Below, piece after piece: positions 9,281 through 31,217 of a stretch of 34,436 nt of DNA. Position numbers and translations under genes: made by a program. Source of the stretch: an uncultured archaeon (lineage in GTDB: Archaea > Asgardarchaeota > Lokiarchaeia > Sigyniarchaeales > SOKP01); assembly GCA_964525635.1 (NCBI GenBank), contig CAZGJX010000039.1:1-34436 (forward strand). The letters run 5' to 3'. The first letter of the stretch is position 1. Each line of letters begins with the position of its first letter. The notes below the pieces were generated by a model, which saw only the letters and a list, made by a program, of their open reading frames with translations, did not search any database and was not told the origin of the DNA.

Positions 9281-9285
9281 AATAA

Positions 9286-10497: not shown

Positions 10498-10547
10498 TTA
10501 AAAATTAATTATTAAAGTCTAAAATAAAAAATTAGGGTAAATTAAGC

Positions 10548-11339: not shown

Positions 11340-11341
11340 TG

Positions 11342-13748: not shown

Positions 13749-14166
13749 TTAATAAATTCTATCAATTATTCCATCAAAATGATTATCAAATGAAATAATT
13801 GAATTGCATTTTGAAAATTCTTTTAAAAAAATTAATGAGGCATCTACAAAACTAAGAATCTTATTTGAAGATGTATATTTATACATTATTTCAGAGATCT
13901 CTCTATAGTTTTTCTTATTTAAATATATAATAGTGAAGAAACAATCATTACTCCAAAATAAGTGACCTAAATTTCTAATCGCTTCAGAATTTCCTCTTGT
14001 CCGGGCATTTATCAAGGTATATATTTCATTCACGACTAAGCTAGATGTAAAAAATTCATTTTCATCCCACTTGAGTTCTTTAGATAATTCTTTTGCTCTC
14101 TCATGATATTTATCATTTTTTACCTCTAGAGCAAATAAAAATCCTTGTATCTAATAAGATTTTCAT
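13749..14166 (-). pseudogene. vapC: VapC PIN-domain toxin with +1 frameshift near codon 7-8
   Basis: Removing one A gives MKILLDTGFLFALEVKNDKYHERAKEL...TSSLVVNEIYTL...SFVDAS...IISFDNHF, with the PIN acidic residues. Confidence 0.8.
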
Positions 14167-14193
14167 AATGTTTTATAATTATTTAATTAGTAT

Positions 14194-14462
14194 TTAGGGG
14201 ATCCCGTATAATAATTCATCATCAGATTTATCTAAATCATATAATTGATATTCTTTAGCATTGGTTAAAATTCTCTCTATTTTTTCAGAATTTGTTCTTT
14301 TTCAGCAGGATCTTCGTTAATTAATTCATTTAAATGTTCTTTTGAAAATTTTAAGCACTTTTCTAAAATCTCTTCATCAGAAAAGGTCTTGGAATATTGA
14401 TTTTGAATTGCTTCTTTTATCTTTTTTAGAACTTTATTATAATTTTCATTAATACTTTTCAT
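14194..14462 (-). pseudogene. Putative VapB antitoxin, frameshifted in an A-run
   Basis: ORF ends ...EQILKK*; adding one A continues KIERILTNAKEYQLYDLDKSDDELLYGIP*, a DELLYG tail typical of archaeal antitoxins; directly upstream of vapC. Confidence 0.6.
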
Positions 14463-14767
14463 AATAATAATAAAGAAAATCAAAATAATATATCTATTTA
14501 CTCTAAAAGTTACTTTTGCAACTAGTGGTTAATGCAGATTATTTTCTGAGTAAAACTGAATTCTTTTATCATTATATTCGAGAATTTTCTGATAAAATAT
14601 ACAATTTATAAATATTGAAAATTGGGATCAATTGATGTTCTCTTTTTTAAATATTATCTGAAAATTTAATTTTCCTACTAAGATTCGATATATTATGCAT
14701 TAATAATCTTATATATTAATGATATGACTGTTATCATTCATTAGAAGGAGTTTAGCAAAATCTAAAT

Positions 14768-15186
14768 TTCAATTCGATTTTCCATTAAAAAGAATATATT
14801 TTCCATGTAATTATTAATAAGACATTTTATTATAAGAAAATTCTGCTATAAGATATACCACGATAATGATATTTATTACATTTTGAACAATAATATTTTG
14901 TAATCTTAAATTCAACTCTTTTCTGCAATATCAGAATTTATTTATTCAAATCAGTAATATTAGATTTAAAAAGGTAAATTAATTAGATTCTAATTGAAAT
15001 AAAATGAATCCAGAATTCCTCATTATCAAAAGGTACAATTATCGCAGGATATCAATATACTCATAAATATACTTGCAAAAAGAAGAGTATTCCATATCTT
15101 CCTTTAAAAAAGGCTATAGAAAATTATTTTTCACATGAGAAAAATTTCAAAGGAAAATTAAAAACAATTTAGTTAAAAAGTAATTA
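14768..15186 (+). repeat. Mosaic of three direct-repeat fragments copied from ~13581-13670, ~7708-7864 and ~10337-10511
   Basis: Direct sequence comparison by eye; the third piece encodes the AlaDH-like C-terminus. Confidence 0.9.
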
Positions 15187-15357
15187 ATTTTCATTTAATA
15201 TTTGATCTTTATTTTTCAAGTAAACTATACATAACTTAGAGACAAAGGGATTTTCTTGAGTTATTATGATATAATGAATTAATATAATTATTTGGATATT
15301 TTCCTTTTATTGGTATATCTTATTTGAACAATAATGTTATTTATTTCTATATAAGAT

Positions 15358-15567
15358 TTAATTTGAACTTATAAATATACTATTTTTAATTTTGAATTCA
15401 TCAATCTCTATATAATCATCAAATTCTCCATAACTATTAATTGGTATTTTTAATACAATTTTTTGATTATTTAAATAGTAGTTATTGTATAATTCACTAC
15501 TATTTTTATCAAAATCAATGTATTTCTTAATCTCTTCTTCACGTTCATCATACATATATATACTCAT
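15358..15567 (-). CDS. Small acidic hypothetical protein
   Basis: 69-aa ORF, co-oriented downstream of the 54-aa ORF. Confidence 0.45.
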   Translation of the reverse strand: MSIYMYDEREEEIKKYIDFDKNSSELYNNYYLNNQKIVLKIPINSYGEFDDYIEIDEFKIKNSIFISSN

Positions 15568-15598
15568 ATATCACACTTTTTTTTTATTTTTAAATTTA

Positions 15599-15763
15599 TT
15601 ATACCAAATCTAGTAATTCTGATTTTAAAATTTCTTTTTCTTCCATAGTCAGTGAAGAAAAATGTTTTGTCTTTTCTCCTCTAAATAATATTTTTTTTCC
15701 TTTTATGATAGGAATTGAATTTTCTAACTTTGCACTATCTTCAGTTATATCATTATCCTGCAT
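15599..15763 (-). CDS. 54-aa hypothetical protein MQDNDITEDSAKLENSIPIIKGKKILFRGEKTKHFSSLTMEEKEILKSELLDLV
   Basis: Manual translation; GAGGTGA SD; paralog start at 41. Confidence 0.6.
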   Translation of the reverse strand: MQDNDITEDSAKLENSIPIIKGKKILFRGEKTKHFSSLTMEEKEILKSELLDLV

Positions 15764-15864
15764 TTTTATTTCACCTCATTATTTTAATTATCTTTACTAT
15801 AGGTTAATTGTCTATTTTTTCATATCTCATTTTAAATTACTTAATTTTAATTAATTTATAAAAA

Positions 15865-16056
15865 TTAATCATTAAGAACACCAATTCTTTTTGTTTCTTT
15901 AATCGTTGGATGTTCAATAATTTTACTAATTAAATAAGACTCCTTTGTTCTATTATCCAATATTTGTAATGAATTACAAATTCTACATCTAAGTACTTTT
16001 TTTCCATTATTTTTCTTAGGTAGTAACAATCCATCACATTCTTTACAAAACTTAAT
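15865..16056 (-). CDS. 63-aa TFS/RpoM N-terminal-like zinc-ribbon protein (copy 2), probable ATT start
   Basis: IKFCKECDGLLLPKKNNGKKVLRCRICNS...GVLND*; GAGGT SD; frame preserved relative to copy 1. Confidence 0.7.
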   Translation of the reverse strand: MKFCKECDGLLLPKKNNGKKVLRCRICNSLQILDNRTKESYLISKIIEHPTIKETKRIGVLND

Positions 16057-16136
16057 ATTTTTTACCTCTTGTTATTTTTTTTTTTAATTTAGAATAATTA
16101 GAACTCATATGTAATAAAAAAATCATAGTTAATTTA

Positions 16137-16790
16137 TTAGTTCTGAGCATTAATTGACTGAACTTCTTGTTTAAAAATAGAAATTTTATCTAAAGCAGAT
16201 AGATAATAATCCTCTTCAATTGAAGCAATATTGTCTAAAATATTTTTTAATTTTTCTTGTTTTTCTTTTTTAAATACCTTCTTCGATATGCTTAAATTAG
16301 AGTCTTCACATGCTACAATTCTTTTTGCTTCTTCTAATTCTGATTTAACCTTTCTTAATTTATCAGTCTTTTGATTTTCAATAGATTTCGATTTCTCTTT
16401 ATTATAATTGATCTGTGCCTTTTCAAGTATGTGTTGAGCATCTTTTAAACTATTCTTATCATCTTCTAATCTGTTATAAGTTTTTAAAAGTTCTTCTAAT
16501 TGACTTATAAATTTAAATTTTAATTTATCAGCTTTTATTTTTCTGAATTTCTCTATTTCTTCGTAACTATCAGCTAGAATATTTAAAAGATTTTTTAGAG
16601 AATCTTCTTCATTATTTGATAAATTTCTTATTGATTCAACTGTATCTATTGAAATCTCTGCTAAGTCTAATTGAGTATCTAAATAATCTTTGCTATTTTC
16701 TATTAATTCTTCAATTTTATTTTTATTAAAATTAAAAAGATTTTTTATACTTTGAGCAAATAATTTTATTTTACTTTTTATGTTTGTCAT
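16137..16790 (-). CDS. Standalone BAR-domain-like helical protein (copy 2)
   Basis: 217 aa, gap-free alignment to 476..1129; AAGGTGA SD. Confidence 0.6.
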   Translation of the reverse strand: MTNIKSKIKLFAQSIKNLFNFNKNKIEELIENSKDYLDTQLDLAEISIDTVESIRNLSNNEEDSLKNLLNILADSYEEIEKFRKIKADKLKFKFISQLEELLKTYNRLEDDKNSLKDAQHILEKAQINYNKEKSKSIENQKTDKLRKVKSELEEAKRIVACEDSNLSISKKVFKKEKQEKLKNILDNIASIEEDYYLSALDKISIFKQEVQSINAQN

Positions 16791-17096
16791 TTAATTTCAC
16801 CTTATAGATAATTTTATTGATCTCTCATAATAAATATAAGAAATTAATATATTTAAATATTATCATATGCTGATATAGTAATATAATCAACTATATTTTT
16901 TATAATTGAAACTTAATTTCTGCATCAAATATAGTATCTTGAGAATATCTATCAATTTTTTTTAAAAATATAAGTATTTATAAAAAGAGAAAGTTTCAAT
17001 ATTCATAAGAAATAATACAAAATCAGAAACACCTAAGTATCAAATATGTTAATTATCTGATAATAAATATTATATTTAATGATATAGGATTAAAGA

Positions 17097-17663
17097 ATGA
17101 ATTTTGATATATTTGCTTTAATTGTAATTCCATTATTAATTTTTTTTGCTCGAGTTATTGATGTATCCTTACAAACCTTGAGAATTATTTTTACTTCAAA
17201 AGACAGAATATATTTAGCTCCAATAGTGGGATTTTTTGAAGTTCTTATATGGTTAATTGCAATTGGTCAAATATTTAGAAATTTATCATATATAAGTTAT
17301 TATATTGCATATGCGTCTGGATTTGCTGCGGGTAATTTTTGTGGAATTTATTTAGAACGAAAAATTTCAATTGGAATGGTAAGTATTCAACTAATTCTTA
17401 AAAAAAATCCCGAATATCTTTTAACAATGATAAAAAATGCAGGATATATTACAACAGTATTATCTGCTGAAGGAAAAAATGGAAATGTAAAATTAGTCAT
17501 TCTAATTATTAGGCGAAAAAGATTATCAGAAATACTTAATATTATAGAAATACATTATCCAAATGCATTTATTTCGATAGAGCAAGTTCAATCTGTGAGT
17601 GGTGGTGGATTTACTTCAACATTAAGAGGGCGAAGCTATTTTATTCGAAGAAGACGAAAATAA
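17097..17663 (+). CDS. UPF0316 (DUF5698/DUF2179) membrane protein
   Basis: IFFARVIDVSL.TLRIIF, GFFEVLIWL.AI, AYA.GFAAGN..G..LE, P.AFI motifs. Confidence 0.9.
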   Translation: MNFDIFALIVIPLLIFFARVIDVSLQTLRIIFTSKDRIYLAPIVGFFEVLIWLIAIGQIFRNLSYISYYIAYASGFAAGNFCGIYLERKISIGMVSIQLILKKNPEYLLTMIKNAGYITTVLSAEGKNGNVKLVILIIRRKRLSEILNIIEIHYPNAFISIEQVQSVSGGGFTSTLRGRSYFIRRRRK

Positions 17664-17804
17664 AATATCTTCTTCTTAAAATCATTGTATTTTTACTTTT
17701 TAATTATATTTTTAAGATAAAAAATCAATATGAATAAATTGGTATTAATAACAGAAGGAGCAAAATTAGCAGAAATAAAAGCAATCTATATAGAAGCAAG
17801 TATT

Positions 17805-17868
17805 TTTACCATATTCCACTAGAAAGCCATTTCCTTTTAGCCGTGGATGAATAATGGAATATGGTAAA
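17805..17868. mobile_element. Small palindromic element with an IS605-end-like core
   Basis: Perfect 14-bp inverted repeat TTTACCATATTCCA (17805-17818) / TGGAATATGGTAAA (17855-17868) enclosing AAAGCCATTTCCTTTTAGCCGTGGATGA. Confidence 0.55.
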
Positions 17869-18148
17869 TTAATTTCACGATATTAAAGCAATTTTTAAAA
17901 AAAAAAAATTCTTTATCAGATTATGATATTAATAGATTATTTTATTTATTAATTAACTGATAGTTCAATCTTCATACTAATTTATACTTTTATTTATATT
18001 ATTCTCGTCATTTATAAATTATAGTCTTAATCTTGATTATTAGCATAAGTTTTGCAAAATCTAAATTTCACGATGAATCTCTTAAAAAAACCATTATTTA
18101 ATACATATTTCCCCTTATTACTAGTTTATTTTATATTTATGAAATATT

Positions 18149-18436
18149 TTATTTTATAAGTTGATTTAAATTCAATTCTCCCAACATATCTTCTAAGATG
18201 ATTTTTCTCTCACCTGGTGATAACGCAAGCATTTCTCTGATAAATAGCTGCTTTTCTTCTTCTTGCCATTTAAATTGATTTACTTTATCAAAAAAGTCTA
18301 AATCTAATAAAGTTATTTTTATATCTTCTAGTTTCCCTATTTTTTCAAAGAAATTCTTTTCATTTAATATTTGAAGCAGATGATTGTTTCCAAGATTTTT
18401 TCTTTTTTTTAAATTATTAATATTTGAGTTCCTCAT
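18149..18436 (-). CDS. Hypothetical helical protein
   Basis: 95-aa ORF; no recognised family. Confidence 0.55.
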   Translation of the reverse strand: MRNSNINNLKKRKNLGNNHLLQILNEKNFFEKIGKLEDIKITLLDLDFFDKVNQFKWQEEEKQLFIREMLALSPGERKIILEDMLGELNLNQLIK

Positions 18437-19143
18437 ATTATTTCTTCATACTTTTCTTAATCTTCTGATAAACTTCATCTATAATTTGCTCTCTAATAGT
18501 TGATACTTATAATAGCAGCATCTCCAGCCCCAATACCTTAATTATTTAAATATTATCAAGAAAAGATTATGGGTTTTTTATCTTTTGTTAGTTATATTTA
18601 GATATTATAGGATAGATTTCCTATTAATACTAAAAGTAATCATCTTCTATATATAAATCTTCCTAACGAGAGTGTTTTTCTTATTGGTTTAATAAACGGA
18701 TCTAATTATATTAAATAAAATATTACTTTAAACAGATTAGAATAACTATTTCAATAGGTATTTTATCCTATTAACTCTGTATTATTTAAAAGATATTCAA
18801 TAATCTCTAAGATGATCAAAACATTTAGTAACTAATACTAGATTCACGAAAATAATCTCATGCTTAAGCTTAATAACAAAAGTCATCTAAGCTTGCATCA
18901 TTTAATCCTTTTGAAATATTTTATCGATCATTAGTTGTTTATAATAGGATTTCACTTTGTTACCAGACTATTATATATTAATCAATAAATATTATTATAT
19001 TGAGATTGCTACAGAAAGGAATACTTAGTAAAGAAATTAAGTTCAAGAAATCAGTAAATATTTTATATAATCGTAACAATATAATATTGAAATACCTAGC
19101 TATTATTAAATGTGAATTAAAAAGAAATTCAAATTGAGCTATA

Positions 19144-19701
19144 ATGGAAAATTATAATCCAAACTCTAAAAACGTTCAGGTGCTTATTTCAGAGAATGCT
19201 TATCTATCTCTTCTTCGCAATAGTTTAAAATATCGAGTATCAACAGGAAATTTAGCTGGATTCAAAAAAAATAATTTGATTGTTATAGGTAAAGCTAAAC
19301 ATTTTGTTGGTACAAATAAGCTTAATGAAGATATTTCATTTAAAAATGAAGATTATGTTAAATTAATGACTTGGGAAGAAAAATTGTATAACAATGATCC
19401 TCCTCATTATATCGTTGGATGGTATAAAATTTGGAAAGGAGATTTCATACCCCGGGGATATGATATAACAACTCAAATGGGTAAACAAGGGCTTAATCCT
19501 GAAGCATTTATGATAATCTTAAATCCAGATCAAATAACGAATGTAGATCCGGGTCTCAGAATAATCCGATTTAAAGATTTAACAGATCCGAGGGATGTTG
19601 AACTTGAATATCTTGATTTCAAAGTAGTTTTCATTGAGAAAAATAGGAAAATGTCTTATATTGATATTTTAAACAATTATCAAGTTAAAGTAGAGATTTA
19701 A
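19144..19701 (+). CDS. MPN/JAB-domain protein lacking the JAMM metal motif
   Basis: V.ISENAYL.LL..S, G.L.G, YIVGWY, DITTQ...Q.LNPEAFMIILNP follow Rpn11/CSN5/eIF3h-type MPN topology; HSH replaced by KIW. Confidence 0.75.
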   Translation: MENYNPNSKNVQVLISENAYLSLLRNSLKYRVSTGNLAGFKKNNLIVIGKAKHFVGTNKLNEDISFKNEDYVKLMTWEEKLYNNDPPHYIVGWYKIWKGDFIPRGYDITTQMGKQGLNPEAFMIILNPDQITNVDPGLRIIRFKDLTDPRDVELEYLDFKVVFIEKNRKMSYIDILNNYQVKVEI

Positions 19702-19773: not shown

Positions 19774-22614
19774 TCAAATATGCTTTTTTATAACTCTCCA
19801 TCTTAAAAAAATAAAAATAATAATAAATACAATTCCACAAATTAATGACATTAAGATATCGATCAATGAGGTAATCCAAACTATAGTTATTCCTGATCCT
19901 ATCGTAAAGATGTATTGGATAAATATTCGTAAATTTTCATTATGTTTTACATAGATAAATATGCACGCGCCTATGCAAACTCCTATTGAATAACTAATGT
20001 TAGTTGTTTCCTTTAATGTGCTATAATCCATAATTGCGAGTGAAAAAGCACCAATTATTCCAAAAATTAAAAATTGCCAGATATTCCTTTTTTCTTTTTC
20101 ATCGAAAGCTGTTTTTTTTATATGTCCAATCCCATTTCTATACAACGACCAAAATACCAAACCCGTACCAAAAATCTTTAAGAAAAAATGGCCAAAAAAG
20201 AGGTCTATATTTTCCAAAAAAGTAAGTTCTATATTATATCCAAGATTAACAAGAACATTAAGTAATTCATCAGGTATTGAGTATTCAAACAGAAAATTCA
20301 CAGCAGGAATTAGTTCCACAGTGAGTGTTGTTTTAACTACTGATCGTATAGCCCAAATTAATAAAATAACAACAAAAATATCAAAGATTTTATATATTTT
20401 TTTTTGAAAAACTACAACAGTAATTTTGATATAGCTTGAAATTGTAGGGATGATTGAAGCACCGATAAATAGATTTATTAATAGAGCTATCACAAATATG
20501 AGCCAAATTATTGGAAAAAAAGAGGGATTAGAGGTGAAATCAATAAAAAAATTGAAGGTAAAAAATCCTATTAATGCTATAATAGTTGCATACGCCAACA
20601 TACCGAATATGTTTTTTTTATTCCTTCTTCTAGTTCTTTTAACATCTCTATATTTTATTTCTTCTTCCAATTTACACATTTCTGATAAATTCATTAACCT
20701 ATCATACTCTTTTCCAGATGTTTTAAATGCTAAAGCTTTGAATTTTTTGGATCCCTCTTTAGATAAGAAGTTATGAGTTAAATTAACCTTCTTTAAATTA
20801 ACTAAATTACCCAAAGAATCTGGTAGGTATTTTAGGTTATTATTCTCTAAATTTAGAATTTCTAAATTCTGAAGATTTCCAAAAGATTCTGGAAGAATTT
20901 TTATTTTATTACCATATAAATTTAATTTTCTTAAAGATTTAAGGTTTCCAAAAGATTCTGGAAGAATTTTTAATTCATGAGAATCAAAATCAAGTATTGT
21001 CAAAGATTTTAAATTACCAAAATATTCTGGAAGTTCACTTAACGTTGCTTTATAAAAATATTTCGGAGCTTCCATATGTAATTCTTTAAGATTCTCTAAA
21101 ACACTGAAAAAATATGGAAGTTTTTTTAATGGATTATTATCTAAATACAATACTTCTAATAATTTTAATTTCCCAAAATCCTCGGGAAGGGTATTTAATA
21201 TATTATTCTCAATATGAAGTGTTTTTAATGATTTTAGATTTCCTATAGATGCTGGAATCATCATCAATCTGGTTAAAGCTAAATCTAAATCTTCAAGATT
21301 TTCCAATTTTGATATCTCATCTGGAAATGCAGATAATGGATTGCATCTAAGACTAAGTTTTTTCAGTGATTTTAATTTTTCAAATGATTTTGGAAGTTTT
21401 GTAAGTCCACAATTAAATAATCCAATACCTGTAACCCGTCCATTTGAGACCTTTATTCCAAAAGAGGTTTCAGATATATTAAATATTTGAGGAAAACCTC
21501 TTTTTTTAAATTTATCTATATCATGTGTGAATCTTACAAGAACAGAAGTTTTTAATTTGTTTAAAATTATATGTTCTAGATCTTCTAAGGCTTTAATTTC
21601 TTCAACATTGAAGATACAATTATTGTATTTTTCATTTGTGATATGAATTTCTTGGTTTTTTTTATTTTCCTCCAATAAACCGATAATATTATCAGCAATT
21701 TCTATGAAAATCTCCCTAATATTATATCCAGTTTTTGCAGATGACAATATATATGGGATACCAAATTTTTCAGCATTTTTTTTTAATTCTTTTTCTTTGA
21801 TAAAAGGTTTATCTATTAAATCTATTTTAGATCCAATTATCAAAATTGGAATTTCATATAGAACTGATTCATTTATTTCATCATACCATCTTTTTATACT
21901 TTTATAATAATTATTTTGAGTAATATCAATAACAATAATAACAGCATCCGCAAAATTATAGATTTTTTCTTTTGTTGGGTTGATTTGACAAATAAAACCA
22001 CCTGTATCCCAAATAAGGTAGTTAATTTTTGTATTTTCCGATATTTCTATATCTTTTTTATGAACCTCAAATCCTATGGTTGGTTTCAAATCTTCAAAAA
22101 ATATATCTTCAACGAATTTCTTTATTATTGAAGATTTTCCTGATTTATTATCTCCTATAAATACAATCTTTAAGGAGAAATGACCTTTGGGAATGATTCC
22201 ACCCTCAGATTTTGAGAAAAGTTTTAATATTCCGGGTATTTCAGAAGATATTTCTTGATTTCCCATTTTTATCGATTCAATTTTATCAGCAAGATGTACA
22301 GAATATACTTTTAATTCAATATCTGTGGTTGAGATTTCTGCAATTGTGGTAATCATTGTATATCCAAATGAGCAAATAACGTATTTTTTATCCTCTACTA
22401 TAAAGATTTCTAAAAAGGATTTGTCAATTCCATATTTATCATATATTTTATCAGTTTTTTTTTCAAGGAATTCTAGGATTAGTCCAATGGCAGACATTTC
22501 CCCTATTTTAATCATAATATTAGAGCTATCTATCCTATCTGTAATTATAACACCTATAATTCCCTTAACATTCTCCATATAGTTGAACAATAGTGTTTTT
22601 AGACGGTTTTCCAT
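19774..22614 (-). CDS. Roadblock-like / Rab-like small GTPase / leucine-rich repeat / multi-pass membrane fusion protein
   Basis: N-terminal VKGIIGVIITDR; G1 GDNKSGKSS, G2 PTIG, G3 WDTGG, G4 GSKID, G5 SSAKTG; ~9 LPESFGNLKSL..L.L..N repeats; ~7-8 hydrophobic segments at C-terminus. Confidence 0.85.
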   Translation of the reverse strand: MENRLKTLLFNYMENVKGIIGVIITDRIDSSNIMIKIGEMSAIGLILEFLEKKTDKIYDKYGIDKSFLEIFIVEDKKYVICSFGYTMITTIAEISTTDIELKVYSVHLADKIESIKMGNQEISSEIPGILKLFSKSEGGIIPKGHFSLKIVFIGDNKSGKSSIIKKFVEDIFFEDLKPTIGFEVHKKDIEISENTKINYLIWDTGGFICQINPTKEKIYNFADAVIIVIDITQNNYYKSIKRWYDEINESVLYEIPILIIGSKIDLIDKPFIKEKELKKNAEKFGIPYILSSAKTGYNIREIFIEIADNIIGLLEENKKNQEIHITNEKYNNCIFNVEEIKALEDLEHIILNKLKTSVLVRFTHDIDKFKKRGFPQIFNISETSFGIKVSNGRVTGIGLFNCGLTKLPKSFEKLKSLKKLSLRCNPLSAFPDEISKLENLEDLDLALTRLMMIPASIGNLKSLKTLHIENNILNTLPEDFGKLKLLEVLYLDNNPLKKLPYFFSVLENLKELHMEAPKYFYKATLSELPEYFGNLKSLTILDFDSHELKILPESFGNLKSLRKLNLYGNKIKILPESFGNLQNLEILNLENNNLKYLPDSLGNLVNLKKVNLTHNFLSKEGSKKFKALAFKTSGKEYDRLMNLSEMCKLEEEIKYRDVKRTRRRNKKNIFGMLAYATIIALIGFFTFNFFIDFTSNPSFFPIIWLIFVIALLINLFIGASIIPTISSYIKITVVVFQKKIYKIFDIFVVILLIWAIRSVVKTTLTVELIPAVNFLFEYSIPDELLNVLVNLGYNIELTFLENIDLFFGHFFLKIFGTGLVFWSLYRNGIGHIKKTAFDEKEKRNIWQFLIFGIIGAFSLAIMDYSTLKETTNISYSIGVCIGACIFIYVKHNENLRIFIQYIFTIGSGITIVWITSLIDILMSLICGIVFIIIFIFLRWRVIKKHI

Positions 22615-22993
22615 TTTATAACTATAATATAAAAATTAGAAAATAAAAGGTTTAATTTTAAGAAATAGAGAAAAATAATATATGAATTCTATAGTTTTAT
22701 TATTAAATGGTTCAATAAATGATTAAAAAATAGTATCTTAGATTTTAAATCATTTAAGTAAATTTAAGATTTATTATCTATTAATTGTGTTAAATTCTGT
22801 TTTTTTCATTGAATTAAAGTTTAGATTTAAGAAATTTAATACTGACAATGCTTTCAAATTATAAAATTAAAGACAAATGTTATACAATTAAAATTTTAGA
22901 CATAAAAGATTGTTTTTTTTATAACATTTGTAAATATTTAAAAATAAATTCTATTAATTAAAGTGTAAAGATAAATGAAAAATATGATTTAAA

Positions 22994-23398
22994 TTGTCTA
23001 AAAAAGAAATTATTGAAAATCTAAATAGTTTAATTCAGGAATTCACAAATTCTCAGAGTGATGTTCAAGGTCAAATTGTCATTGCTTTTCCTTCGGGTGT
23101 CCCAATAGCTAATAGTTGGGAAGGAACAATTAATCCAATTTTAGTTGGAGCACTATCTGCAGCTGTTAAATTAACTTTTCAGAATTTATGTGTACATTTA
23201 AACAAGGGAAATCTTAAAAGATTATTAATGAATAGTGAATATGGAAGAGCAATCATCCAAAATGCTGGTGAAAATGCTATTTTAACTACTTTAATTGATG
23301 GAGAAGCAGATATGTTAAGAATAGCATTTGGGGTAACTAATTTGGCTTTAGATATTGAAAAGATAATGAAAGATTATGAATTTACAGGTGAGATCTAA
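22994..23398 (+). CDS. Roadblock/LC7-domain protein
   Basis: 134 aa; DVQGQIVIAFPSGVPIAN, VGALSAA, L.KG.L....MNSEYG..II..AG..AIL pattern. Confidence 0.85.
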   Translation: MSKKEIIENLNSLIQEFTNSQSDVQGQIVIAFPSGVPIANSWEGTINPILVGALSAAVKLTFQNLCVHLNKGNLKRLLMNSEYGRAIIQNAGENAILTTLIDGEADMLRIAFGVTNLALDIEKIMKDYEFTGEI

Positions 23399-23400
23399 AA

Positions 23401-24372
23401 ATGACAGAAAAAACAGATTTATTAGAAATATTACAGGAAATTGAATTTATAACGGATATTAATGGTTGTTTTTTTATTAATGCAGAAGATAATAGTTTAA
23501 TAGAATCAACTATCCCATTTAATATTCGTAAAGAGATTTTATGGGAAATATGCGTATTGAAAGATACTTTTCAGCAATTCTCAGATGAGATTAAACATGG
23601 AGACCTTTCAGAACTGATGTTAGAAGGTGATAAAGGATATATTTTTCTTTTCAGTATTCCCCCTCACTTGGTTTTATTAGCTATGGCATCATATGAAACA
23701 AATATCTCTTATTTAAAATTAGCTATGATTGATATTTTAAAAAGAGTTAAAGTACGAATAAAGGAATTAGGTGATGATGTTTTAGCAATACCAGTTAAGG
23801 AATTTGTTGATATAGAACCGGCTAGACGTGCTCAAATTGCTATTAAGCCTACCAAACCAATCCCAGTTGCTACAGAACCTGCTAAACCTATTAAGGTTGT
23901 TAAGCCTATTCCTGTTGTTGCTGAACCTGCTAAACCTATTAGAGTTGTTGAACCTACTCCTATTGCTACTGAGCCTGCTGAACCTATTGAAGTAGTTGAA
24001 CCTATTCCAGTTGCTGCTGAACCTACTCCATTAGTCTCTATTGCTAAAGTTTCAGAAGCAGAGGAAATGAATATTGAAACCATGATTGATTCTATAAATA
24101 GTAAAGAACTCACAGATAAATATATGGTTCTTAAGAAAATATTCGATAAATTAAAAAATGATATAAAAACACTTACTGGCGTAAAGATTTCAAAAATTCT
24201 CGATCTTCTAAAGGATTCTATATTAAATAATATAGGAACTTCGCTTGCTCTTTTTGATCTCTCAAGAAGTTCTAAAGATTTAAGTAAAAATTATGAATCA
24301 TTACAACCAGATGAAATAAATAAACTTAAAAACAAAATAGACAATTGGTCAAGTCGAATTATAAAATTATAG
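23401..24372 (+). CDS. Roadblock-like domain, Pro-rich repeat linker and helical C-terminal domain
   Basis: HGDLSELMLEGDKGYIFLF...LVLLAMA roadblock pattern; 2-nt gap to upstream gene. Confidence 0.75.
   Translation: MTEKTDLLEILQEIEFITDINGCFFINAEDNSLIESTIPFNIRKEILWEICVLKDTFQQFSDEIKHGDLSELMLEGDKGYIFLFSIPPHLVLLAMASYETNISYLKLAMIDILKRVKVRIKELGDDVLAIPVKEFVDIEPARRAQIAIKPTKPIPVATEPAKPIKVVKPIPVVAEPAKPIRVVEPTPIATEPAEPIEVVEPIPVAAEPTPLVSIAKVSEAEEMNIETMIDSINSKELTDKYMVLKKIFDKLKNDIKTLTGVKISKILDLLKDSILNNIGTSLALFDLSRSSKDLSKNYESLQPDEINKLKNKIDNWSSRIIKL
23854..24030 (+). repeat. Coding tandem repeat, 48 bp/16 aa, ~3.7 copies
   Basis: KPIPVATEPAKPIKVV / KPIPVVAEPAKPIRVV / EPTPIATEPAEPIEVV / EPIPVAAEPTP. Confidence 0.9.
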
Positions 24373-24383
24373 AGGTGATAAAA

Positions 24384-24893
24384 ATAAGTCTGATTTTATA
24401 TGAAGTAGAAGGTAGAGAAATACTTCCAGTAGAAGAAGCGACATTCGAGAGTAATAAGATTTATATTATAATAGATAAACACAGAAAAAAAAGATCAAAA
24501 ATATGGATATGGAGTGGTCCTGACTCAAATATATTAGACAGATATTTCGCTGGAGTATCTGCAACCAGAATTAAATCAAAAGAGAAACTTTATGGAGCTA
24601 GCATAGAAGTTGTTGAGAGTGGAAATGAACCTAAACAATTTCCGAAACTCACAAAAGATAGGATTATGAAACCAACTGAAGAAGAACCATCCTTTATGTC
24701 TGAAGATATTGTAGAAGAAGTATCCAAAGCTGAGGATATATTCATAGAAGAAGTTCATTCTGAACCATTATTAATACCAAAGGAGAGTGGAGATATGATA
24801 TCCATTCAAAAAATGACTGGTTTCTTAAAAGAATTATCACTAGATCTTGGAAAAATGAGAGAAAAAATCAACAAGTTTTTGTCAGATTTGTAA
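24384..24893 (+). CDS. Single gelsolin-like domain protein with acidic linker and C-terminal helix; probable ATA start
   Basis: LYEVEG...FESNKIYIII...IWIWSG..S...R..A..I......IEVVESGNEPKQF is a gelsolin-domain signature; GAGGTGA at 24372-24378 precedes ATA. Confidence 0.75.
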   Translation: MSLILYEVEGREILPVEEATFESNKIYIIIDKHRKKRSKIWIWSGPDSNILDRYFAGVSATRIKSKEKLYGASIEVVESGNEPKQFPKLTKDRIMKPTEEEPSFMSEDIVEEVSKAEDIFIEEVHSEPLLIPKESGDMISIQKMTGFLKELSLDLGKMREKINKFLSDL

Positions 24894-24960
24894 AATAAGG
24901 AGTTTAATCAGAAATTAAATTAATTTTATTAATATTTTTAGTAGAGAGGTTGAATATTTT

Positions 24961-26277
24961 ATGTTAGACGCAAGTGTAGGAATAACAACAGAAAAAGATA
25001 GTTATTTGGCAGGAAAAAAAGTTGCTAAAGAGACCTTAGGAGGGATGAGTTCAAAACCTAAATTAGCAATATTAGCTATAGATTCACTTACTCGAAGACA
25101 TTTTAATAATAAAGAAGTCCTAAGGGGAGTAAGAGATGAACTTGGTCCAGATGTAACACTAATTGGTAGTACTGTTAATGGAATATTGGTAAAAGATCGT
25201 TTCGCACTAAGAAGTATAGGTTTAATGTTATTAGGTGGTGATATATCTGTCGATTCATCTTATAATTACAATAAATCGAGGATAGAATATAAAAGTATTG
25301 CAGAAAAAATATACCAAAAAGCAAGTGCTTTAGAACCTAAAGATAATCGAATTATGATAATGTTTCAAGATGGAATGAAATTTCCCCCCGAAATCTTAGC
25401 TAAACAGAATTCATTAAATAGTCGAGTAGTTTCCTTATTATCTGGTTTAGTAAACAGATTTTTTAAAAGACAACTAGAAGATATGAAAGAACAAGGAATG
25501 GGAATGCCTACGGTTCAAGAATTACTTGAAGCCCTTTATGCAAAAGGATATAATCTTCCAGTAATTGGAAATATTTCAACTAATATACGCGATTACGATT
25601 CTGAAGAATTTTATAATGATGAAGTTGGGACAGACAAGGTTGTTGGAGCTATTTTATCTGGAAACAGTTCAACTAAATTTGGTTTTGGATTTGCTGCAGG
25701 AGCAGAATCTATGGGAAAAAAATGCAAACCTACGAAAAATATAGGAAATTTTATTTTAAAGATTGATGGAAAACCTGCTTTATTAGGTTTGTGTTCAGCT
25801 GTGGGAATAAATATAGAATCATTACATGAGTTAAGATCTTCAGATTATCTGAATTATTATTTAATATTAGGTACTAAAGAAATGATAAAGGATAAAGAAT
25901 ATATACATCTAACAGCGACAATCACTAATCCTGAGCTTGAAAGTCTTATTAATACAGGATTTCCATTTGATCGAGTTCCTGACGAAATTGAAATCTTTCA
26001 GAGTAATATGAATATACTCCATAAAACAGCAGAAAGATCGATAAGTCAAGCTTTAGCTAATATTTCAAATCCTAAATTTCTTTTAGGAATAGATTGTGCA
26101 ATACGATTTATCGCGTATGGTGATAATTTCCCAAAGATTATAAAAACAATTGATGATATTATTGGTAAAGATATTCCTAGAATGATCATTGGTTCTGGTG
26201 GTGAAATATATGGAACCAAAGATGTAGATTGGTATTTTAACAATATGACGTATGTAACCTTGGCAGGAGGAGATTAG
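24961..26277 (+). CDS. Standalone FIST N/C-domain sensory protein
   Basis: DSY.AG...A, LIGST..G, N.ILKIDGKPAL, DCAIRF, GGEI...FNNMT.V.L motifs. Confidence 0.8.
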   Translation: MLDASVGITTEKDSYLAGKKVAKETLGGMSSKPKLAILAIDSLTRRHFNNKEVLRGVRDELGPDVTLIGSTVNGILVKDRFALRSIGLMLLGGDISVDSSYNYNKSRIEYKSIAEKIYQKASALEPKDNRIMIMFQDGMKFPPEILAKQNSLNSRVVSLLSGLVNRFFKRQLEDMKEQGMGMPTVQELLEALYAKGYNLPVIGNISTNIRDYDSEEFYNDEVGTDKVVGAILSGNSSTKFGFGFAAGAESMGKKCKPTKNIGNFILKIDGKPALLGLCSAVGINIESLHELRSSDYLNYYLILGTKEMIKDKEYIHLTATITNPELESLINTGFPFDRVPDEIEIFQSNMNILHKTAERSISQALANISNPKFLLGIDCAIRFIAYGDNFPKIIKTIDDIIGKDIPRMIIGSGGEIYGTKDVDWYFNNMTYVTLAGGD

Positions 26278-26420
26278 TTCATCTATATGAAATTGGAAAA
26301 TAAAAGTATTATTTAATTTTTTTTTTAACTTAAATAAAGGATAATCTTTATAATTAAATTTTATCTTATTCGATAAATATTAAAATAATTATTATCACCA
26401 AATGGACAAACATTTATTAA

Positions 26421-27611
26421 TTGATAAAAATGATAATAGATGAGTTATTAACTAAGGGTAAACAAAATTTTCGTGAAGACAATCAAGAAAAAGTTAAAAA
26501 TGAACGTTTTAAAGCAATATTAGAAACGGTAAAGCATCAATTTGAAAAATGTGGTTTCTATCGTCAATTTTGTCGACAAAAGAATTTTAATCCTACCAAC
26601 TTGAAATCAATTGATGATATTGCTAAAATACCTTATTTAACTACAGCAAACTTTAAAAAAAGATCAGGAAGACCGAAGGAATTATTATGTGTTCCCGAGA
26701 GTGATATTCTTGTCTGGACTATGTCAAGTGGCACTTCAGGAGACCCTTCTTTAATTGGAAGAGATTTAAAGCATTTAGAACGATATTTCATAATGTTTGA
26801 TTTTGTTCTAGAAGAATTATGTAATTTGACACATTATGATTGGTCTTTCTTTTTTCAACCAAAACCCAGACAGAGATTAACGAATAAAGATAAGGTCCCT
26901 CAACCTCTAAACCATATGGGTTACATATTCAATGTTGCAAATAAACTTCCTATGGAAAAACGATATTATGCTCTAAAATTAGCAGATGAAGAATCAAGGA
27001 AAAAAGGTAAAATTTTTGAATTTGATGCTGAAACAGCATTTGGATTCTTTAATTCAAATCCAGTAGAAAAGGGGATTGGTTGGATTGGAGGTGCTGTTCC
27101 TTTAATGTATGGATCTTTAAAAGGATATTATGAAAAAACAGGTCAAGGATTTAATGTTGGGAAAGATACTATATTTGTATCTGGAGGGGGATGGAAATCT
27201 TTTTCAGGAGAGGCTGTTTCACCCGTTAAATTTCGGGAAGATATGACAAAAATCTTAGGAATCCCAAAAGAACAAATCTTAGATGTATATAGTTTTACTG
27301 AGACAGATTGTGTTCATGCTGAATGTGAATATCATAATAAACATCTTCTACCTTGGCAAGATATTGTAGTAAGGGATGTTGAAACTTTAGAACCTGTGGA
27401 AATGGGTGAAAAAGGTCTTAATAATGTAATTAATCCTATTGCTTATAGTTTCGCTGGTGTATCAATTCTACAAGATGATATTGTTCGGGTTGTTATGGAA
27501 GATGATTGTCCTTGCGGAAGAAAAGGTAAAGTTATTGAGGTTTTAGGTAGAGCAGAAGGTGCAGAAGCTAAGGGATGTGGGGCTCAAATGACAGAAGAAA
27601 CCAATATATAA
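26421..27611 (+). CDS. luxE: LuxE-family acyl-protein synthetase (fatty-acid activating)
   Basis: IPYLTTANFK, SSGTSG, GGGWK, DVYSFTE, SILQDD, CPCGRKG...VLGRA.GAEAKGC with the C-terminal acylation Cys; start may be ATG 26430. Confidence 0.85.
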   Translation: MIKMIIDELLTKGKQNFREDNQEKVKNERFKAILETVKHQFEKCGFYRQFCRQKNFNPTNLKSIDDIAKIPYLTTANFKKRSGRPKELLCVPESDILVWTMSSGTSGDPSLIGRDLKHLERYFIMFDFVLEELCNLTHYDWSFFFQPKPRQRLTNKDKVPQPLNHMGYIFNVANKLPMEKRYYALKLADEESRKKGKIFEFDAETAFGFFNSNPVEKGIGWIGGAVPLMYGSLKGYYEKTGQGFNVGKDTIFVSGGGWKSFSGEAVSPVKFREDMTKILGIPKEQILDVYSFTETDCVHAECEYHNKHLLPWQDIVVRDVETLEPVEMGEKGLNNVINPIAYSFAGVSILQDDIVRVVMEDDCPCGRKGKVIEVLGRAEGAEAKGCGAQMTEETNI

Positions 27612-27703
27612 AAATATAAGAATAATTGAATTATACTTTAAAAAACATTATCTTATTTTTATTTTTAAAAATAATTATATTTTATTTTTTTTATTTTATT
27701 GTT

Positions 27704-29392
27704 ATGAAAAAAAGAATTAATATTCCTGGATTTATTTTTAAACCTATTTATTCTGAAAGTACTACAAAAGAGGAAATTAAACGTCAGGAGGATATTTTAG
27801 AGATTGAATTTCCTGTTTTTAATAAGAATCAAGTTTTAAAAACAGCTGAACTCCTTGCTCTAAAAAAGAGAAGAGCTCATGATAGACATATAGATGATAT
27901 TTTAGATGTTATTGATCAATTAGGTGCATTATGGCGGGATCCATATTATGATCTTCGTAAAGAAGCATTAGAAATCCTTCCAATGATAACAGGACAATCT
28001 AAAAAATTAATTGAAATTGAACTCATGGCAACCCTAATAATGTGCGAAAGAAAGATTGCAGAGGCTCAATTAATTGGTGAGATTGGAGGCAAACAATATT
28101 TAGAAGATTGGATTCCAAGAGGTAATACAAGAATTCATGCTCAACCTCGAGGTCTCGTTTTTCATAATCTTGCAGGTAATGCATTTAACTTAGGATTATT
28201 AACACTCTTTTTTGGTCTAATAACTAAAAATGTTAATTTAATCAAATTATCCCATGGAGAACCATACTTTTTAATAAGAATTTGCGAATCTATTTATGAT
28301 ATTGATAAAAAAATAGCGAAAGAAATTGCTGCAATTTATTGGAAAGGGAGTAGTGGTGACATTTATGATGAATTGTTTAATTCTGGATATGTTGATTGTG
28401 TTTTAGCTTGGGGGGGAATTCAATCAATCGAAGAAATAAGAAGAAGAGCATATCGTTATGGTATAAAAATAATAGATCATGGACCAAAACTATCTTTTAG
28501 TGTTATATCAGATGATATATTTAAAAATATTGAAGTAATGAGAGAATCCGCGAGGAAAATTGCCTTAGATTTAGTATACTGGAACCAAAAAGCATGTTTA
28601 AGCCCAAGAATAATATATATTGTGGAAAAACCCCAAAAAGTTGATTTTTTTAAAAAATTTAGTAATGGAACATCAGAAGAGAATGATAATAATAAAATAT
28701 TTTCTTCAATTGAAGAAGTTCTTTCTGATAGTATCACGGAATCTTCTTATACTTTAAATTCAAATAGTATTATTTCTCAAATGCAACGCTCAATGAAGTT
28801 ACTTAAGGATGAAATTTCGGAATTATCAACAAAAGCTTTTGCAAAATTATTAGCTCAAGGATTAAAAGAGGCAAATATAATGCTTCCCCGTTCTCACCTA
28901 ACACAAGCAGATGGTATACAGATGAATAAAAAGAGAGAATATTTTATGATGAATTATGCTTTTAAAAAACGTGCTATCCTTTATTATCCTTCCAAAGATA
29001 AATTAGATTGGACTGTTGTTTTTTTGCGAGATTTGCCTTCCATGCTTGAAGTAGATATGTGCCAAGACCGATTTGTTATAGTTACAAGAATTTCAAATAT
29101 ACAAGATTTAATATATTCTATAAGAAAAGAACATTTACAGCAGTATCTTCAAACAGTATCAATCTATGGTTCAGATAATTTTGTTAAAGAAGTATCTGAA
29201 GAATTATCATTATTAGGAGCAAATAGATTTCCAAGAATAGGCGAACATAACATTCAATCTATTGGGATGCCATGGGATGGCCATTATACACTTCAAGAAA
29301 TGATAAAATGGGTTTATATTGCATTTCTTAATAAAGAATCCGAGGAAGATGACAATGGAAGGATTAATCTAATGGATGGGTTTGATGGATAA
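27704..29392 (+). CDS. luxC: LuxC-family acyl-CoA/acyl-protein reductase
   Basis: PRGLVFHNLAGN, AWGG, HGPKLSF, WNQKACLSP catalytic Cys, YLQTV, GMPWDG..L motifs; likely start MKKRI at 27704. Confidence 0.88.
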   Translation: MKKRINIPGFIFKPIYSESTTKEEIKRQEDILEIEFPVFNKNQVLKTAELLALKKRRAHDRHIDDILDVIDQLGALWRDPYYDLRKEALEILPMITGQSKKLIEIELMATLIMCERKIAEAQLIGEIGGKQYLEDWIPRGNTRIHAQPRGLVFHNLAGNAFNLGLLTLFFGLITKNVNLIKLSHGEPYFLIRICESIYDIDKKIAKEIAAIYWKGSSGDIYDELFNSGYVDCVLAWGGIQSIEEIRRRAYRYGIKIIDHGPKLSFSVISDDIFKNIEVMRESARKIALDLVYWNQKACLSPRIIYIVEKPQKVDFFKKFSNGTSEENDNNKIFSSIEEVLSDSITESSYTLNSNSIISQMQRSMKLLKDEISELSTKAFAKLLAQGLKEANIMLPRSHLTQADGIQMNKKREYFMMNYAFKKRAILYYPSKDKLDWTVVFLRDLPSMLEVDMCQDRFVIVTRISNIQDLIYSIRKEHLQQYLQTVSIYGSDNFVKEVSEELSLLGANRFPRIGEHNIQSIGMPWDGHYTLQEMIKWVYIAFLNKESEEDDNGRINLMDGFDG

Positions 29393-29420: not shown

Positions 29421-31217
29421 TTAAATCACTAAAATATCTAAATCTTTCTTTATTGTATGAAGTTTGTTCTTTTTTTTATATAATGCGATAATACTTAATT
29501 TACGTGATTTTAAATTATCCTCTTTATCATAATGTTTTTTAAAATTCCATTTTAAAAGAAATGCCTCGTTTGGTCCTAAGATTTTAGGGATATGATTTTT
29601 TAGTTCTTTTTTTTTTTTTTTTTTAAAGATATCTTTAGGATAATCTATAATTATATATAAATCAGTTATTATTTCTGAAGATAAATTCTTAATTTGTATA
29701 AATAATTTTATTACTGAATTAAAATCTTGAGGTTTACGAATTAACTTCCATTGTTTTAAAAATAAAAGATCATTATTAATATCAGATTTTGGTATAATGG
29801 ATTCTAAAACATTTTCAGTAATTTTGGCACTTATCAAATTCTTTTTCAAGAGTATTGATATAACATCCGTAATTTTTGACTTATGGATATTATATTTAAA
29901 ACATATTTCATCAAGATTTACTGCTCTTTTTTTTATCTCCAATGATAACCACTCGCTTAAATCTAAATAGGAAAGTTCAGGCATTACTTCACTTAAAAAT
30001 GCAATTAATTCTTTTCTTAAGGTTTCCGCTTCAAAATCTTCTAGTTTTCCTGCTTCATTTAATTGATGATATATGTTTAAATAGATATCATATTGTGGAA
30101 CCGCTTTTAATAACATCCTTAATTTTGTATAATTTGCCAAATCAAATTTTTTTACCATCTCAATGATTAATTGTGAAAATAATGAATCTACAAATTTTGG
30201 ATCCCTAATATATAATTTTTTAAGAATATTTGTAAGAGTGATATTGAATTGAATATCTATTAAGGTTGTATGTATAAATAAATACTCAAATCTTAAAAAA
30301 CCATGTTTTTTTATTGAAAATTTTAAAAGATTTTCAATTGCTTCAATATTATCAAAGGTATCATCATTTAAATATGAGAAAAATGCATCATCAAATAATT
30401 TAACATGATATTCCATTATTTCTTTGATAGCTTTAGAAACTGCTTTGTTTACTAAAAAATCATCATGATCTAGGAATAATACTATTTCTCTAGTGAGGGG
30501 TTGGATTAAATCTTTCTTTTTTATGCCTAATTTTCCTATCAGAAAAATTATCTTTTCTTGAGCTATCCAATTCCTATTAAGAATTGAATTTACTAAGCTT
30601 TTAAAATCTTTAATAGAATAAGTTTTAATAATTAAATTAAATAAAAAGTCTAAAATTTCCCATTTAACATCTTTATCTTCTTCATCATACAATACATCTA
30701 ATTCATTATTAAATTCCTTAATGAATTCAGCTCTTTCTAAAATTATATCATTTAAGAATCCTATTATCTGCATTCTTATGTTCCAAAAATCATCTTTTAA
30801 ACATTTAATTAAACTAATAATAATTTTATTCTCAAATTTTGGACATTCATTAAAAATTTTAATTAAAAAATCGATAAATTTACGTCTTACAATAGGTTCA
30901 AAATGACTTAATTTGGAGATTATAAAATCAATCTCATCATCAATTAGATTAAGATCATTAATTAATGTATTTGTATATAAATTAATTGACATTTCCTGTA
31001 TATTCTCATCATAGGAATCTATTAATTTTTTAATTTCTTGGAAGTGATGTTGTGATAAATAGTTCCCCTTTTTTTGTATCTGTTGAATACCTTCTAAAAT
31101 ATCTGATAAAGGTAAAATATCTTCTTCATTGATTAATGATACTAAGTTATTTAATGCTTTTTCATAATTACCAGATTTAATATCTTCTTTTATTTTATTT
31201 AAGTTAATTTCTGTTAT
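29421..31217 (-). CDS. HEAT/ARM-repeat protein with a putative winged-helix and C-terminal beta-sandwich; frame extends to a probable ATA start at 31217
   Basis: LKDDFWNIR, DEEDKDVK, LDHDDFLV HEAT motifs; frame open 75 codons upstream of ATG 30992; C-terminal LFIQIKNLS..ITDL.I.IDYP...LGPNE...KW.F. Confidence 0.75.
   Translation of the reverse strand: MTEINLNKIKEDIKSGNYEKALNNLVSLINEEDILPLSDILEGIQQIQKKGNYLSQHHFQEIKKLIDSYDENIQEMSINLYTNTLINDLNLIDDEIDFIISKLSHFEPIVRRKFIDFLIKIFNECPKFENKIIISLIKCLKDDFWNIRMQIIGFLNDIILERAEFIKEFNNELDVLYDEEDKDVKWEILDFLFNLIIKTYSIKDFKSLVNSILNRNWIAQEKIIFLIGKLGIKKKDLIQPLTREIVLFLDHDDFLVNKAVSKAIKEIMEYHVKLFDDAFFSYLNDDTFDNIEAIENLLKFSIKKHGFLRFEYLFIHTTLIDIQFNITLTNILKKLYIRDPKFVDSLFSQLIIEMVKKFDLANYTKLRMLLKAVPQYDIYLNIYHQLNEAGKLEDFEAETLRKELIAFLSEVMPELSYLDLSEWLSLEIKKRAVNLDEICFKYNIHKSKITDVISILLKKNLISAKITENVLESIIPKSDINNDLLFLKQWKLIRKPQDFNSVIKLFIQIKNLSSEIITDLYIIIDYPKDIFKKKKKKELKNHIPKILGPNEAFLLKWNFKKHYDKEDNLKSRKLSIIALYKKKNKLHTIKKDLDILVI

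Follow-up and report, generated by a model that had tools for sequence, protein, structure and literature searches.

The enzymes LuxC and LuxE of luminous bacteria together convert a carboxylic acid to an aldehyde using ATP and NADPH (PMC9157457; PMC12041015), with LuxE forming a transferable acyl thioester (PMC9157457). Stand-alone FIST proteins are known as sensors from NosP, which is encoded in an operon with its presumed partner (NosP-NosK-NosR; PMC12570481), and roadblock proteins from MglB, LAMTOR2-3 and the Asgard roadblock dimers (PMC10933270). Asgard genomes encode many roadblock proteins, whose partners are usually not readable from gene order (PMC10933270), as well as mini-gelsolins such as 1DGelX of Thorarchaeota, a calcium-independent severing protein (PMC7444086). 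Here we describe a locus of an uncultured lokiarchaeal genome (GCA_964525635.1; 4.45 Mb, 27% GC, 100% complete by markers) in which members of these families are neighbours. The stretch analysed, hereafter the window, is the entire contig CAZGJX010000039.1 (34,436 nucleotides); close homologues carry the labels Promethearchaeota/Lokiarchaeota. It carries two roadblock genes (RB1 and RB2), a gelsolin gene, a FIST gene, luxE and luxC on one strand, followed by a convergent HEAT/adaptin-ear gene, and these seven genes almost certainly constitute a real module.

Gene starts were re-placed using orthologue alignments, by which two genes of the window (at 24384 and 31217) seem to begin at ATA. The features discussed below are as follows (aa, amino acids):

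22994..23398, + strand: RB1, roadblock/LC7 protein of 134 aa (profile matches)
23401..24372, + strand: RB2, roadblock domain (residues 1-135), variable Pro/Glu linker and conserved ~100-aa helical C-terminal domain (alignment, profile)
24384..24893, + strand: single gelsolin domain, acidic linker and C-terminal amphipathic helix (Pfam, profile, alignment)
24961..26277, + strand: stand-alone FIST protein of 438 aa with FBXO22-like fold, Cys379 and Glu415 (Pfam, model, alignment)
26317..26326, + strand: T10 tract after the FIST stop codon, terminator-like (sequence, orthologous gaps)
26430..27611, + strand: LuxE-family acid-adenylating enzyme with C-terminal carrier Cys (Pfam, alignment)
27680..27699 (about), + strand: T-rich tract between luxE and luxC, terminator-like (sequence, orthologous gaps)
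27704..29392, + strand: LuxC-family acyl-thioester reductase of 562 aa with catalytic Cys298 (Pfam, alignment)
29421..31217, - strand: convergent gene for a TOG-like HEAT trunk, winged helix and adaptin-ear-like Ig domain, ~598 aa (probable ATA start at 31217)
19774..22614, - strand: roadblock-like/Ras/LRR/multi-transmembrane gene, a neighbour in this genome only and not a member of the module

Distribution and linkage of the seven genes

Presence of the module was counted among 81 related genomes, with a FIST orthologue taken as a match of at least 35% identity; kin genomes in these counts are not independent of one another. The distribution was all-or-none. A FIST orthologue was present in 20 of the 81 genomes, about a quarter of the Loki-type Asgards sampled, and these 20 also carried RB1 (19/20), LuxC (19/20), LuxE (18/20), the gelsolin (17/20) and the HEAT/ear gene (16/20, against 0 of the 61 others). 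The cases lacking RB1, LuxE or LuxC fall at contig ends or in incomplete genomes, and RB1 of two genomes of another order (G072 and G073) was assigned with a thin score margin and relies on adjacency. No module gene found a match at these levels in the remaining 61 genomes, except for a related luxEC pair in G050, which sits in a different cluster. The complete genomes of 4.4 Mb and 6.0 Mb among those sampled do not carry the module. A wider search of 400 genomes of the phylum recovered one additional module.

G002, G006, G009, G011, G024, G036 and G042 each preserve the order RB1-RB2-gelsolin-FIST-luxE-luxC on one contig, mostly with the convergent HEAT/ear gene, and the module of G061 is without gelsolin. 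The G072/G073-type locus is rearranged to FIST-luxE-luxC-RB1-RB2; with gaps in G072 of 36 bp (FIST-luxE), 51 bp (luxE-luxC) and 51 bp (luxC-RB1), it looks like a single operon. Yet another arrangement, FIST-luxE-RB1-RB2, was found at L097. Linkage thus outlasts rearrangement at 35-40% identity; together with the patchy presence of the module inside genera, this means that chance adjacency is no explanation.

These results bear out a first-pass annotation of the window, which had proposed six co-oriented genes as a unit: order and co-occurrence (20/81 genomes) are conserved, and FIST, LuxE and LuxC remain next to roadblock and gelsolin genes in other Asgard genomes. All of its open reading frames and domain calls were found again, at their positions and with their domains. 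Its boundaries needed revision, as it had wrongly included the divergent GTPase-LRR gene, which is not syntenic, and missed the convergent HEAT/ear gene. It had also supposed the combination to be undescribed, and our literature searches found no paper describing the module. By sequence, then, the module appears to be undescribed: its composition is new and sets it apart from the lux operon, NosP and MglAB, while its function is only a candidate. This grading follows from the composition and from the features of those three systems that are absent here (below), not from demonstrated function.

Two arrangements were seen near modules of other genomes. The HEAT gene of G011 (L058:6213-9219) has moved ~14 kb from the module, to a place with another copy of the gelsolin gene and remnants of luxC and FIST, which suggests local duplication or inversion. 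Two genomes of genus g6 carry six ~180-aa paralogues in arrays near the module (L050:3884-8017 and L054:5874-10405).

The encoded proteins and a predicted FIST-roadblock complex

LuxE (Pfam 2.6e-41) most likely starts at ATG 26430, and this orthologue-based start corrects the FIST-luxE gap from the 143 bp given earlier to 152 bp. Its SSGTSGD loop at residue 99, K256, R374 and C383 are kept in orthologues, the last three being equivalent to K238, R355 and C364 of Photobacterium phosphoreum LuxE (PMC9157457). LuxC (Pfam 1.9e-79; start most likely ATG 27704, 92 bp behind luxE) has the aldehyde dehydrogenase (ALDH) fold, and its catalytic Cys298 aligns to Cys296 of 7XC6. The likeness to P. phosphoreum LuxC-LuxE (PDB 7XC6; PMC9157457) accordingly spans the tandem of both families, the adenylation loop, the Lys of the GGGWK motif, the Arg, the carrier Cys and the LuxC catalytic Cys. 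By contrast, the module enzymes form a distant Asgard clade, have Gly in place of LuxE R354, carry a ~65-aa LuxC insert (~309-374) with a conserved amphipathic helix, and are linked to FIST and roadblock genes, with no luxD found and no luxAB nearby. Judging from these residues, LuxEC is very likely an active acid reductase. Identity to the bacterial enzymes is ~30% or less and the scores fall far below the NCBIfam equivalog cut-offs (LuxE 105 vs 550; LuxC 133 vs 750), so that the substrate cannot be read from homology and need not be a fatty acid.

Neither luxAB nor luxD occurs in any module locus. Bioluminescence could be ruled out, since no LuxD-family gene (PF02273) was found in the genome and its one luciferase-family gene (PF00296) is unlinked to the module. 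Other Lokiarchaeial luxEC pairs belong to a separate clade and reside in acyl carrier protein/ligase/alcohol-dehydrogenase clusters without FIST or roadblock genes. One such cluster (L079-L084, in two complete genomes) reads acyl carrier protein - AMP ligase - Fe-alcohol dehydrogenase - luxE - luxC, with a convergent gene that encodes an alpha/beta hydrolase in G067; alcohol dehydrogenase and LuxE are seemingly fused in G025 (734 aa). The tree leaves monophyly of the module LuxE unresolved, grouping it with the non-module LuxE of G050, whose LuxC lacks the insert. That G050 locus (L048:1732-14180) holds the nearest non-module luxEC and resembles a biosynthetic gene cluster; besides two LuxE-like genes and LuxC, it encodes two U32-family proteins, a short-chain dehydrogenase/reductase, and a B12 radical SAM enzyme together with a paralogue of it.

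The first-pass annotation had pointed to a T-run at ~26317-26326 that might separate luxEC transcriptionally, and the T10 tract is indeed there. Orthologous FIST-luxE gaps contain a T-run of at least 6 in 14 of 14 cases and of at least 8 in 8 of 14, compared with at most 5 in gelsolin-FIST gaps, and 14 of 15 orthologous luxE-luxC gaps have a run of at least 8. The background for runs of at least 8 is 17-22% of comparable gaps (17% for the gaps of this genome comparable to luxE-luxC), and A-runs are equally common in its co-oriented gaps, which makes T-runs alone weak evidence. The tracts suggest that luxE and luxC are often transcribed separately; from sequence, RB1-RB2-gelsolin-FIST is likely transcribed as one unit, and luxE and luxC either on their own or after attenuation. 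The earlier caveat is thereby reinforced, and the linkage stands regardless. A sigma-70 promoter/terminator scan, a model ill-suited to archaea, returned chance-level counts.

The FIST protein (Pfam 2.7e-16 and 3.2e-7 for the N and C domains) was modelled with a predicted local distance difference test score (pLDDT) of 94.7, and its best structural match was FBXO22 (Z 20.3, root-mean-square deviation [rmsd] 3.5, 277 residues aligned; PDB 8UA3), followed by chorismatase (Z 12.6) and barbiturase (Z 11.1). Cys379 (codon 26095-26097) and Glu415 are invariant, and Cys379 aligns to human FBXO22 Cys326 (broad profile, E 1.6e-4), a residue at which aldehydes are bound reversibly as a hemithioacetal (bioRxiv 10.1101/2023.11.01.564830, 10.1101/2025.08.29.673087). 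Unlike FBXO22, the protein has no F-box and no sign of a ubiquitin-ligase role, and the two share 14% identity. With NosP it has in common the stand-alone FIST N and C domains, the conserved Cys-x-x-Arg and GE motifs and an operon setting with a presumed partner (PMC12570481); it differs in its separate clade, its ~45-aa amphipathic insert (helical at ~154-177) and its predicted partner, a roadblock heterodimer. No histidine kinase and no cyclic di-GMP or chemotaxis output gene is found among the seven conserved genes.

Both roadblock proteins score weakly in Pfam. An RB1 alignment profile matches PDB 9JUE at 2.6e-19 and 7F8M at 6e-8, and the RB2 profile matches a solved roadblock protein at 3.6e-8. 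For RB2 the first-pass annotation was right about the roadblock; its Pro repeat proved to be a linker of unconserved sequence, which rules out the repeat as a functional motif, and the conserved C-terminal helical domain had been overlooked. An Atlas search with that domain gave no usable match. A helical domain of this ~100-aa type also ends two ~640-aa proteins of the same genome (L108:4220-6154 and L109:6077-7981), one of which carries a TrmB helix-turn-helix; the L108 gene has a gelsolin gene 1.2 kb away.

We folded RB1, RB2(1-135) and FIST together. The complex scored 0.92, compared with 0.25 for the best control and 0.01 when RB2 was swapped out. In the calibration, 58 of 80 solved complexes attained the mark, as did 2 of 110 mismatched pairs. 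Contacts were shared between runs to at least 83%, the pLDDT of the partners was 89 or higher, and no solved FIST-roadblock complex was found that the prediction could have copied. In the predicted interface, each roadblock contributes the beginning of its helix 3 (chiefly RB2 residues 100-111), which meets the FIST 80-85 hairpin and residues 383-392, the latter on the helix with Cys379 as its first residue. Conservation in RB2 is higher at the interface than elsewhere in the domain (0.75 vs 0.61, p 0.008). The helix-2 face of the roadblocks, which in MglB is the GTPase-binding face, stays outside the predicted FIST contacts. These models indicate that FIST and RB1/RB2 probably form a complex, and the FIST-roadblock coupling suggested earlier gains support both from the controlled prediction and from roadblock-FIST adjacency in other Asgard classes (below).

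Resemblance to MglB, LAMTOR2-3 and the Asgard roadblock dimers thus comprises the roadblock fold, a tandem heterodimer-like pair, and the face of N- and C-terminal helices, a known protein-binding site (PMC10933270), at which FIST is predicted to dock. A dimer is indicated by the profiles and by the joint fold of RB1 and RB2, in which only FIST was scored. In contrast to MglAB- and Ragulator-type systems, the module has no linked cognate small GTPase, the neighbouring GTPase being non-syntenic; its predicted partner is FIST, and RB2 has an extra C-terminal domain. In strain MK-D1 the GTPase partner of a roadblock is usually unlinked, so an unlinked partner may exist here too (PMC10933270).

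In other Asgard classes, sister FIST genes immediately follow a roadblock gene. Family f10 has a KaiC-roadblock-FIST-Ras operon, with FIST in 28 of 31 genomes, and family f20 has mostly KaiC-roadblock-FIST; every sister locus examined that had upstream DNA showed a roadblock gene immediately before FIST, and the roadblock-adjacent FISTs form a single clade (SH-aLRT 100). The FIST of these operons belongs to the same clade as that of the module, and the upstream roadblock has a similar helix-3 start motif; they differ in having one roadblock, and a KaiC ATPase and a Ras GTPase replace luxEC, gelsolin and HEAT. Literature searches found no paper on the KaiC-roadblock-FIST(-Ras) operon. In the f10 loci (L065:6716-10364, L113-L116, L118-L120, L124-L126, L129) Ras is followed by a gene for ~105-128 aa, and the operon often adjoins EF-1alpha. 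At L117:2484-8921 and L098:817-6912, KaiC-roadblock-FIST is divergent from EhpF-like and ALDH-fold genes, with a common ~160-aa unknown gene.

The gelsolin most likely starts at ATA 24384, behind a GAGGTGA motif. Its domain scores 2.7e-5 in Pfam, and an alignment profile matches Thor 2DGel3 at 1.9e-12; orthologues are restricted to module genomes, and actin genes are encoded in this genome. The layout, one gelsolin domain and then a helical tail, resembles that of the Asgard mini-gelsolins 1DGelX and ProGel (PMC7444086), although the tail here is a linker with one short helix and the best matches are 2DGel3 and the second domain of CapG/gelsolin. To 1DGelX, a single domain with a C-terminal coiled-coil domain X, the likeness is one of layout, compared without the 1DGelX sequence.

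The HEAT/ear protein, modelled from the G036 orthologue (pLDDT 84.9), matches CLASP2 TOG1 (Z 15.5, rmsd 3.1 over 198) and the GGA2 GAE domain (Z 10.4, rmsd 2.6 over 101). It shares the HEAT trunk and ear Ig folds with adaptin and coatomer large subunits, from which it differs by the winged helix between the folds and the lack of a platform subdomain; helical-repeat scores single out no family. The model suggests a scaffold. A short HEAT-like gene beside the G072/G073 FIST compares with the window gene at an hhalign probability of 7%. The same genome encodes a 991-aa paralogue (L110:3103-6078) with HEAT repeats, a PCI-like winged helix and a C-terminal Ig-like part.

Proposed function and competing explanations

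We tentatively propose that LuxEC makes an aldehyde, that FIST senses it and that the roadblock dimer relays the signal, which would make the module a small-molecule signalling unit of Lokiarchaeia. LuxE would adenylate a carboxylic acid and carry it as a Cys383 thioester, and LuxC would accept the acyl group on Cys298 and reduce it to the aldehyde. The RB1-RB2 heterodimer is predicted to bind, through its helix-1/helix-3 face, the FIST 80-85 hairpin and the helix from Cys379 to 392. The aldehyde might bind FIST Cys379 reversibly, as at FBXO22 Cys326, and alter the FIST-roadblock contact. In the weakest step, the helix-2 face of the dimer might hand this state on, either to a GTPase from another locus or to the gelsolin and the HEAT/ear scaffold, so affecting actin or membrane organisation. 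That the LuxEC product is the FIST ligand is conceivable, if somewhat doubtful; a cytoskeletal or GTPase output is more doubtful still. We regard as improbable the fullest version, a self-made aldehyde messenger read covalently at the FIST Cys, with roadblocks acting on small GTPases and gelsolin with HEAT/ear acting on actin and membrane shape.

A parallel may exist in G398 and L098, where two genes diverge from KaiC-roadblock-FIST, one for an EhpF-like adenylating enzyme (PDB 3L2K, E 1e-40) and one of ALDH fold with a Cys motif. We take EhpF/ALDH-type pairs (EhpF/G, GriC/D) to be aryl-acid-to-aldehyde reductases, having found no usable paper on EhpF/GriC chemistry; by this analogy the pair may be a second, non-orthologous FIST association with acid reduction.

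Several observations weigh against the aldehyde-sensing proposal. The aldehydes bound by FBXO22 are synthetic ligands only (bioRxiv 10.1101/2023.11.01.564830, 10.1101/2025.08.29.673087), and characterised FISTs (NosP) bind heme (PMC12570481). The equivalent of Cys379 is kept in at least 90% of diverse aligned FISTs and is thus unspecific to aldehyde sensing: the residue speaks for capacity, not for the identity of a ligand. In the main lineage, the conserved T-tracts ahead of luxE and of luxC speak against a single transcript, and the gelsolin finds no match in three of the 20 module genomes. Our complex was folded from alignments that we built ourselves and as three chains, which departs from the calibration, so the calibration counts apply only approximately, and interface conservation was not significant for RB1 or FIST. 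The EhpF link is known from two related genomes only. No reductase pair is nearby in the KaiC-roadblock-FIST-Ras group or in family f20, and the EhpF-like genes in 22 of 31 f10 genomes (L132-L141) lie apart from the FIST operon, with no ALDH gene inside 1.5 kb of them, which leaves a general FIST-EhpF link unsupported. With this query, EhpF-like genes were not found in most other Asgard families.

The direction might be the reverse, with the FIST-roadblock complex sensing the acid substrate, heme/nitric oxide or redox state and controlling LuxEC as output, for instance through a contact with the insert helix of LuxC; in that case the aldehyde or alcohol would serve as a metabolite or as a precursor of lipids. 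FISTs of the NosP type sense heme and regulate a partner enzyme by binding to it (PMC12570481), the conserved amphipathic helix of the insert could serve as a docking motif, and the roadblock-FIST pair is older than its luxEC link, but no heme ligand was identified in the module FIST, and we consider this direction unlikely. It is less probable again that FIST is itself a pathway enzyme, supplying the acid as a LuxD substitute or converting the aldehyde, with roadblocks, HEAT and gelsolin only scaffolding or localising it. In its favour, the structures ranked next after FBXO22 are those of enzymes, Cys379 and Glu415 do not vary, and the genome yielded no LuxD-family gene; on the other hand, the same residues are kept across diverse aligned FISTs, and sister FISTs occur in KaiC-roadblock-Ras operons without metabolic enzymes. 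Protein acyl-modification, taken up from the title of the first-pass annotation, in which acyl bound to LuxE is moved onto a roadblock, the gelsolin or a GTPase for membrane anchoring, would draw on the transferable thioester of LuxE, and Ragulator is anchored to membranes via a lipidated subunit. We judge it very improbable, as LuxC always accompanies LuxE and retains its catalytic Cys, which points to reduction, as the module has no acyltransferase, and as RB1 Cys66 is not kept in G072/G073.

The patchy presence inside genera and the terminator-like tracts would also fit two independent units (RB1-RB2-gelsolin-FIST and luxE-luxC-HEAT) co-travelling on one gained or lost island. This has little probability, because flanking genes are never common beyond close kin, whereas all seven module genes are, and because G072 and L097 interleave both units into one tight run, with linkage persisting at 35-40% identity; by keeping FIST, lux and roadblock genes together, these rearranged loci support a single module. 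The first-pass annotation had favoured yet another arrangement, with the divergent membrane roadblock-GTPase-LRR protein as the dedicated receptor and GTPase of the module. Its 946-aa product has a Ras domain (E 2.7e-34), LRR, ~7 hydrophobic segments and a plausible, statistically weak N-terminal roadblock (hhalign E 0.03; Atlas 0.84). The gene does share with RB1 a divergent region of 379 bp, just as had been measured before, and G009 has an Arf-like GTPase upstream of RB1, unrelated to it and the sole such case. In G002, G003 and G026, however, the full-length orthologue has other neighbours; G001 and G025 have one although they lack the module, and most module genomes gave no full-length orthologue with this query. 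The genes upstream of RB1 vary by genome (PIN, acyl-CoA synthetase, FGGY kinase, acyl-CoA dehydrogenase, BNR). Synteny thus rules out this gene as a member and largely refutes the receptor model, to which we give almost no credence.

The module names FIST as a roadblock partner with a predicted interface, and this pairing recurs in several Asgard classes and is testable using three small soluble proteins; for testing FIST, roadblock and GTPase together, the f10 KaiC-roadblock-FIST-Ras operon is a cleaner case than the window. The FIST ligand question becomes concrete, with enzymes possibly making the ligand encoded next door and a candidate reactive Cys whose counterpart in human FBXO22 is used by aldehyde degraders. 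If the fullest version above is true, it would define a new kind of metabolite-to-cytoskeleton pathway from eukaryote-like parts and suggest a natural ligand class for FIST domains, human FBXO22 included. If the gelsolin link holds, the Asgard actin cytoskeleton would have an upstream chemical input other than calcium.

Other genes in the window

A JAB/MPN-like protein (Pfam E 0.036) is encoded at 19144-19701 (+), convergent with the GTPase-LRR gene. The region 13470-19100 is AT-rich (~20-23% GC) and gene-poor, and standard starts give few open reading frames above 80 aa there. At 8450-13470 (+) lies a cluster that encodes two methyltransferases and also holds an alanine-dehydrogenase-like and an asparagine-synthase-like gene. 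Two homologous 217-aa genes lie at 476-1129 (-) and 16137-16790 (-), of which the first weakly matches FAM92 (BAR-like; E 4e-6).

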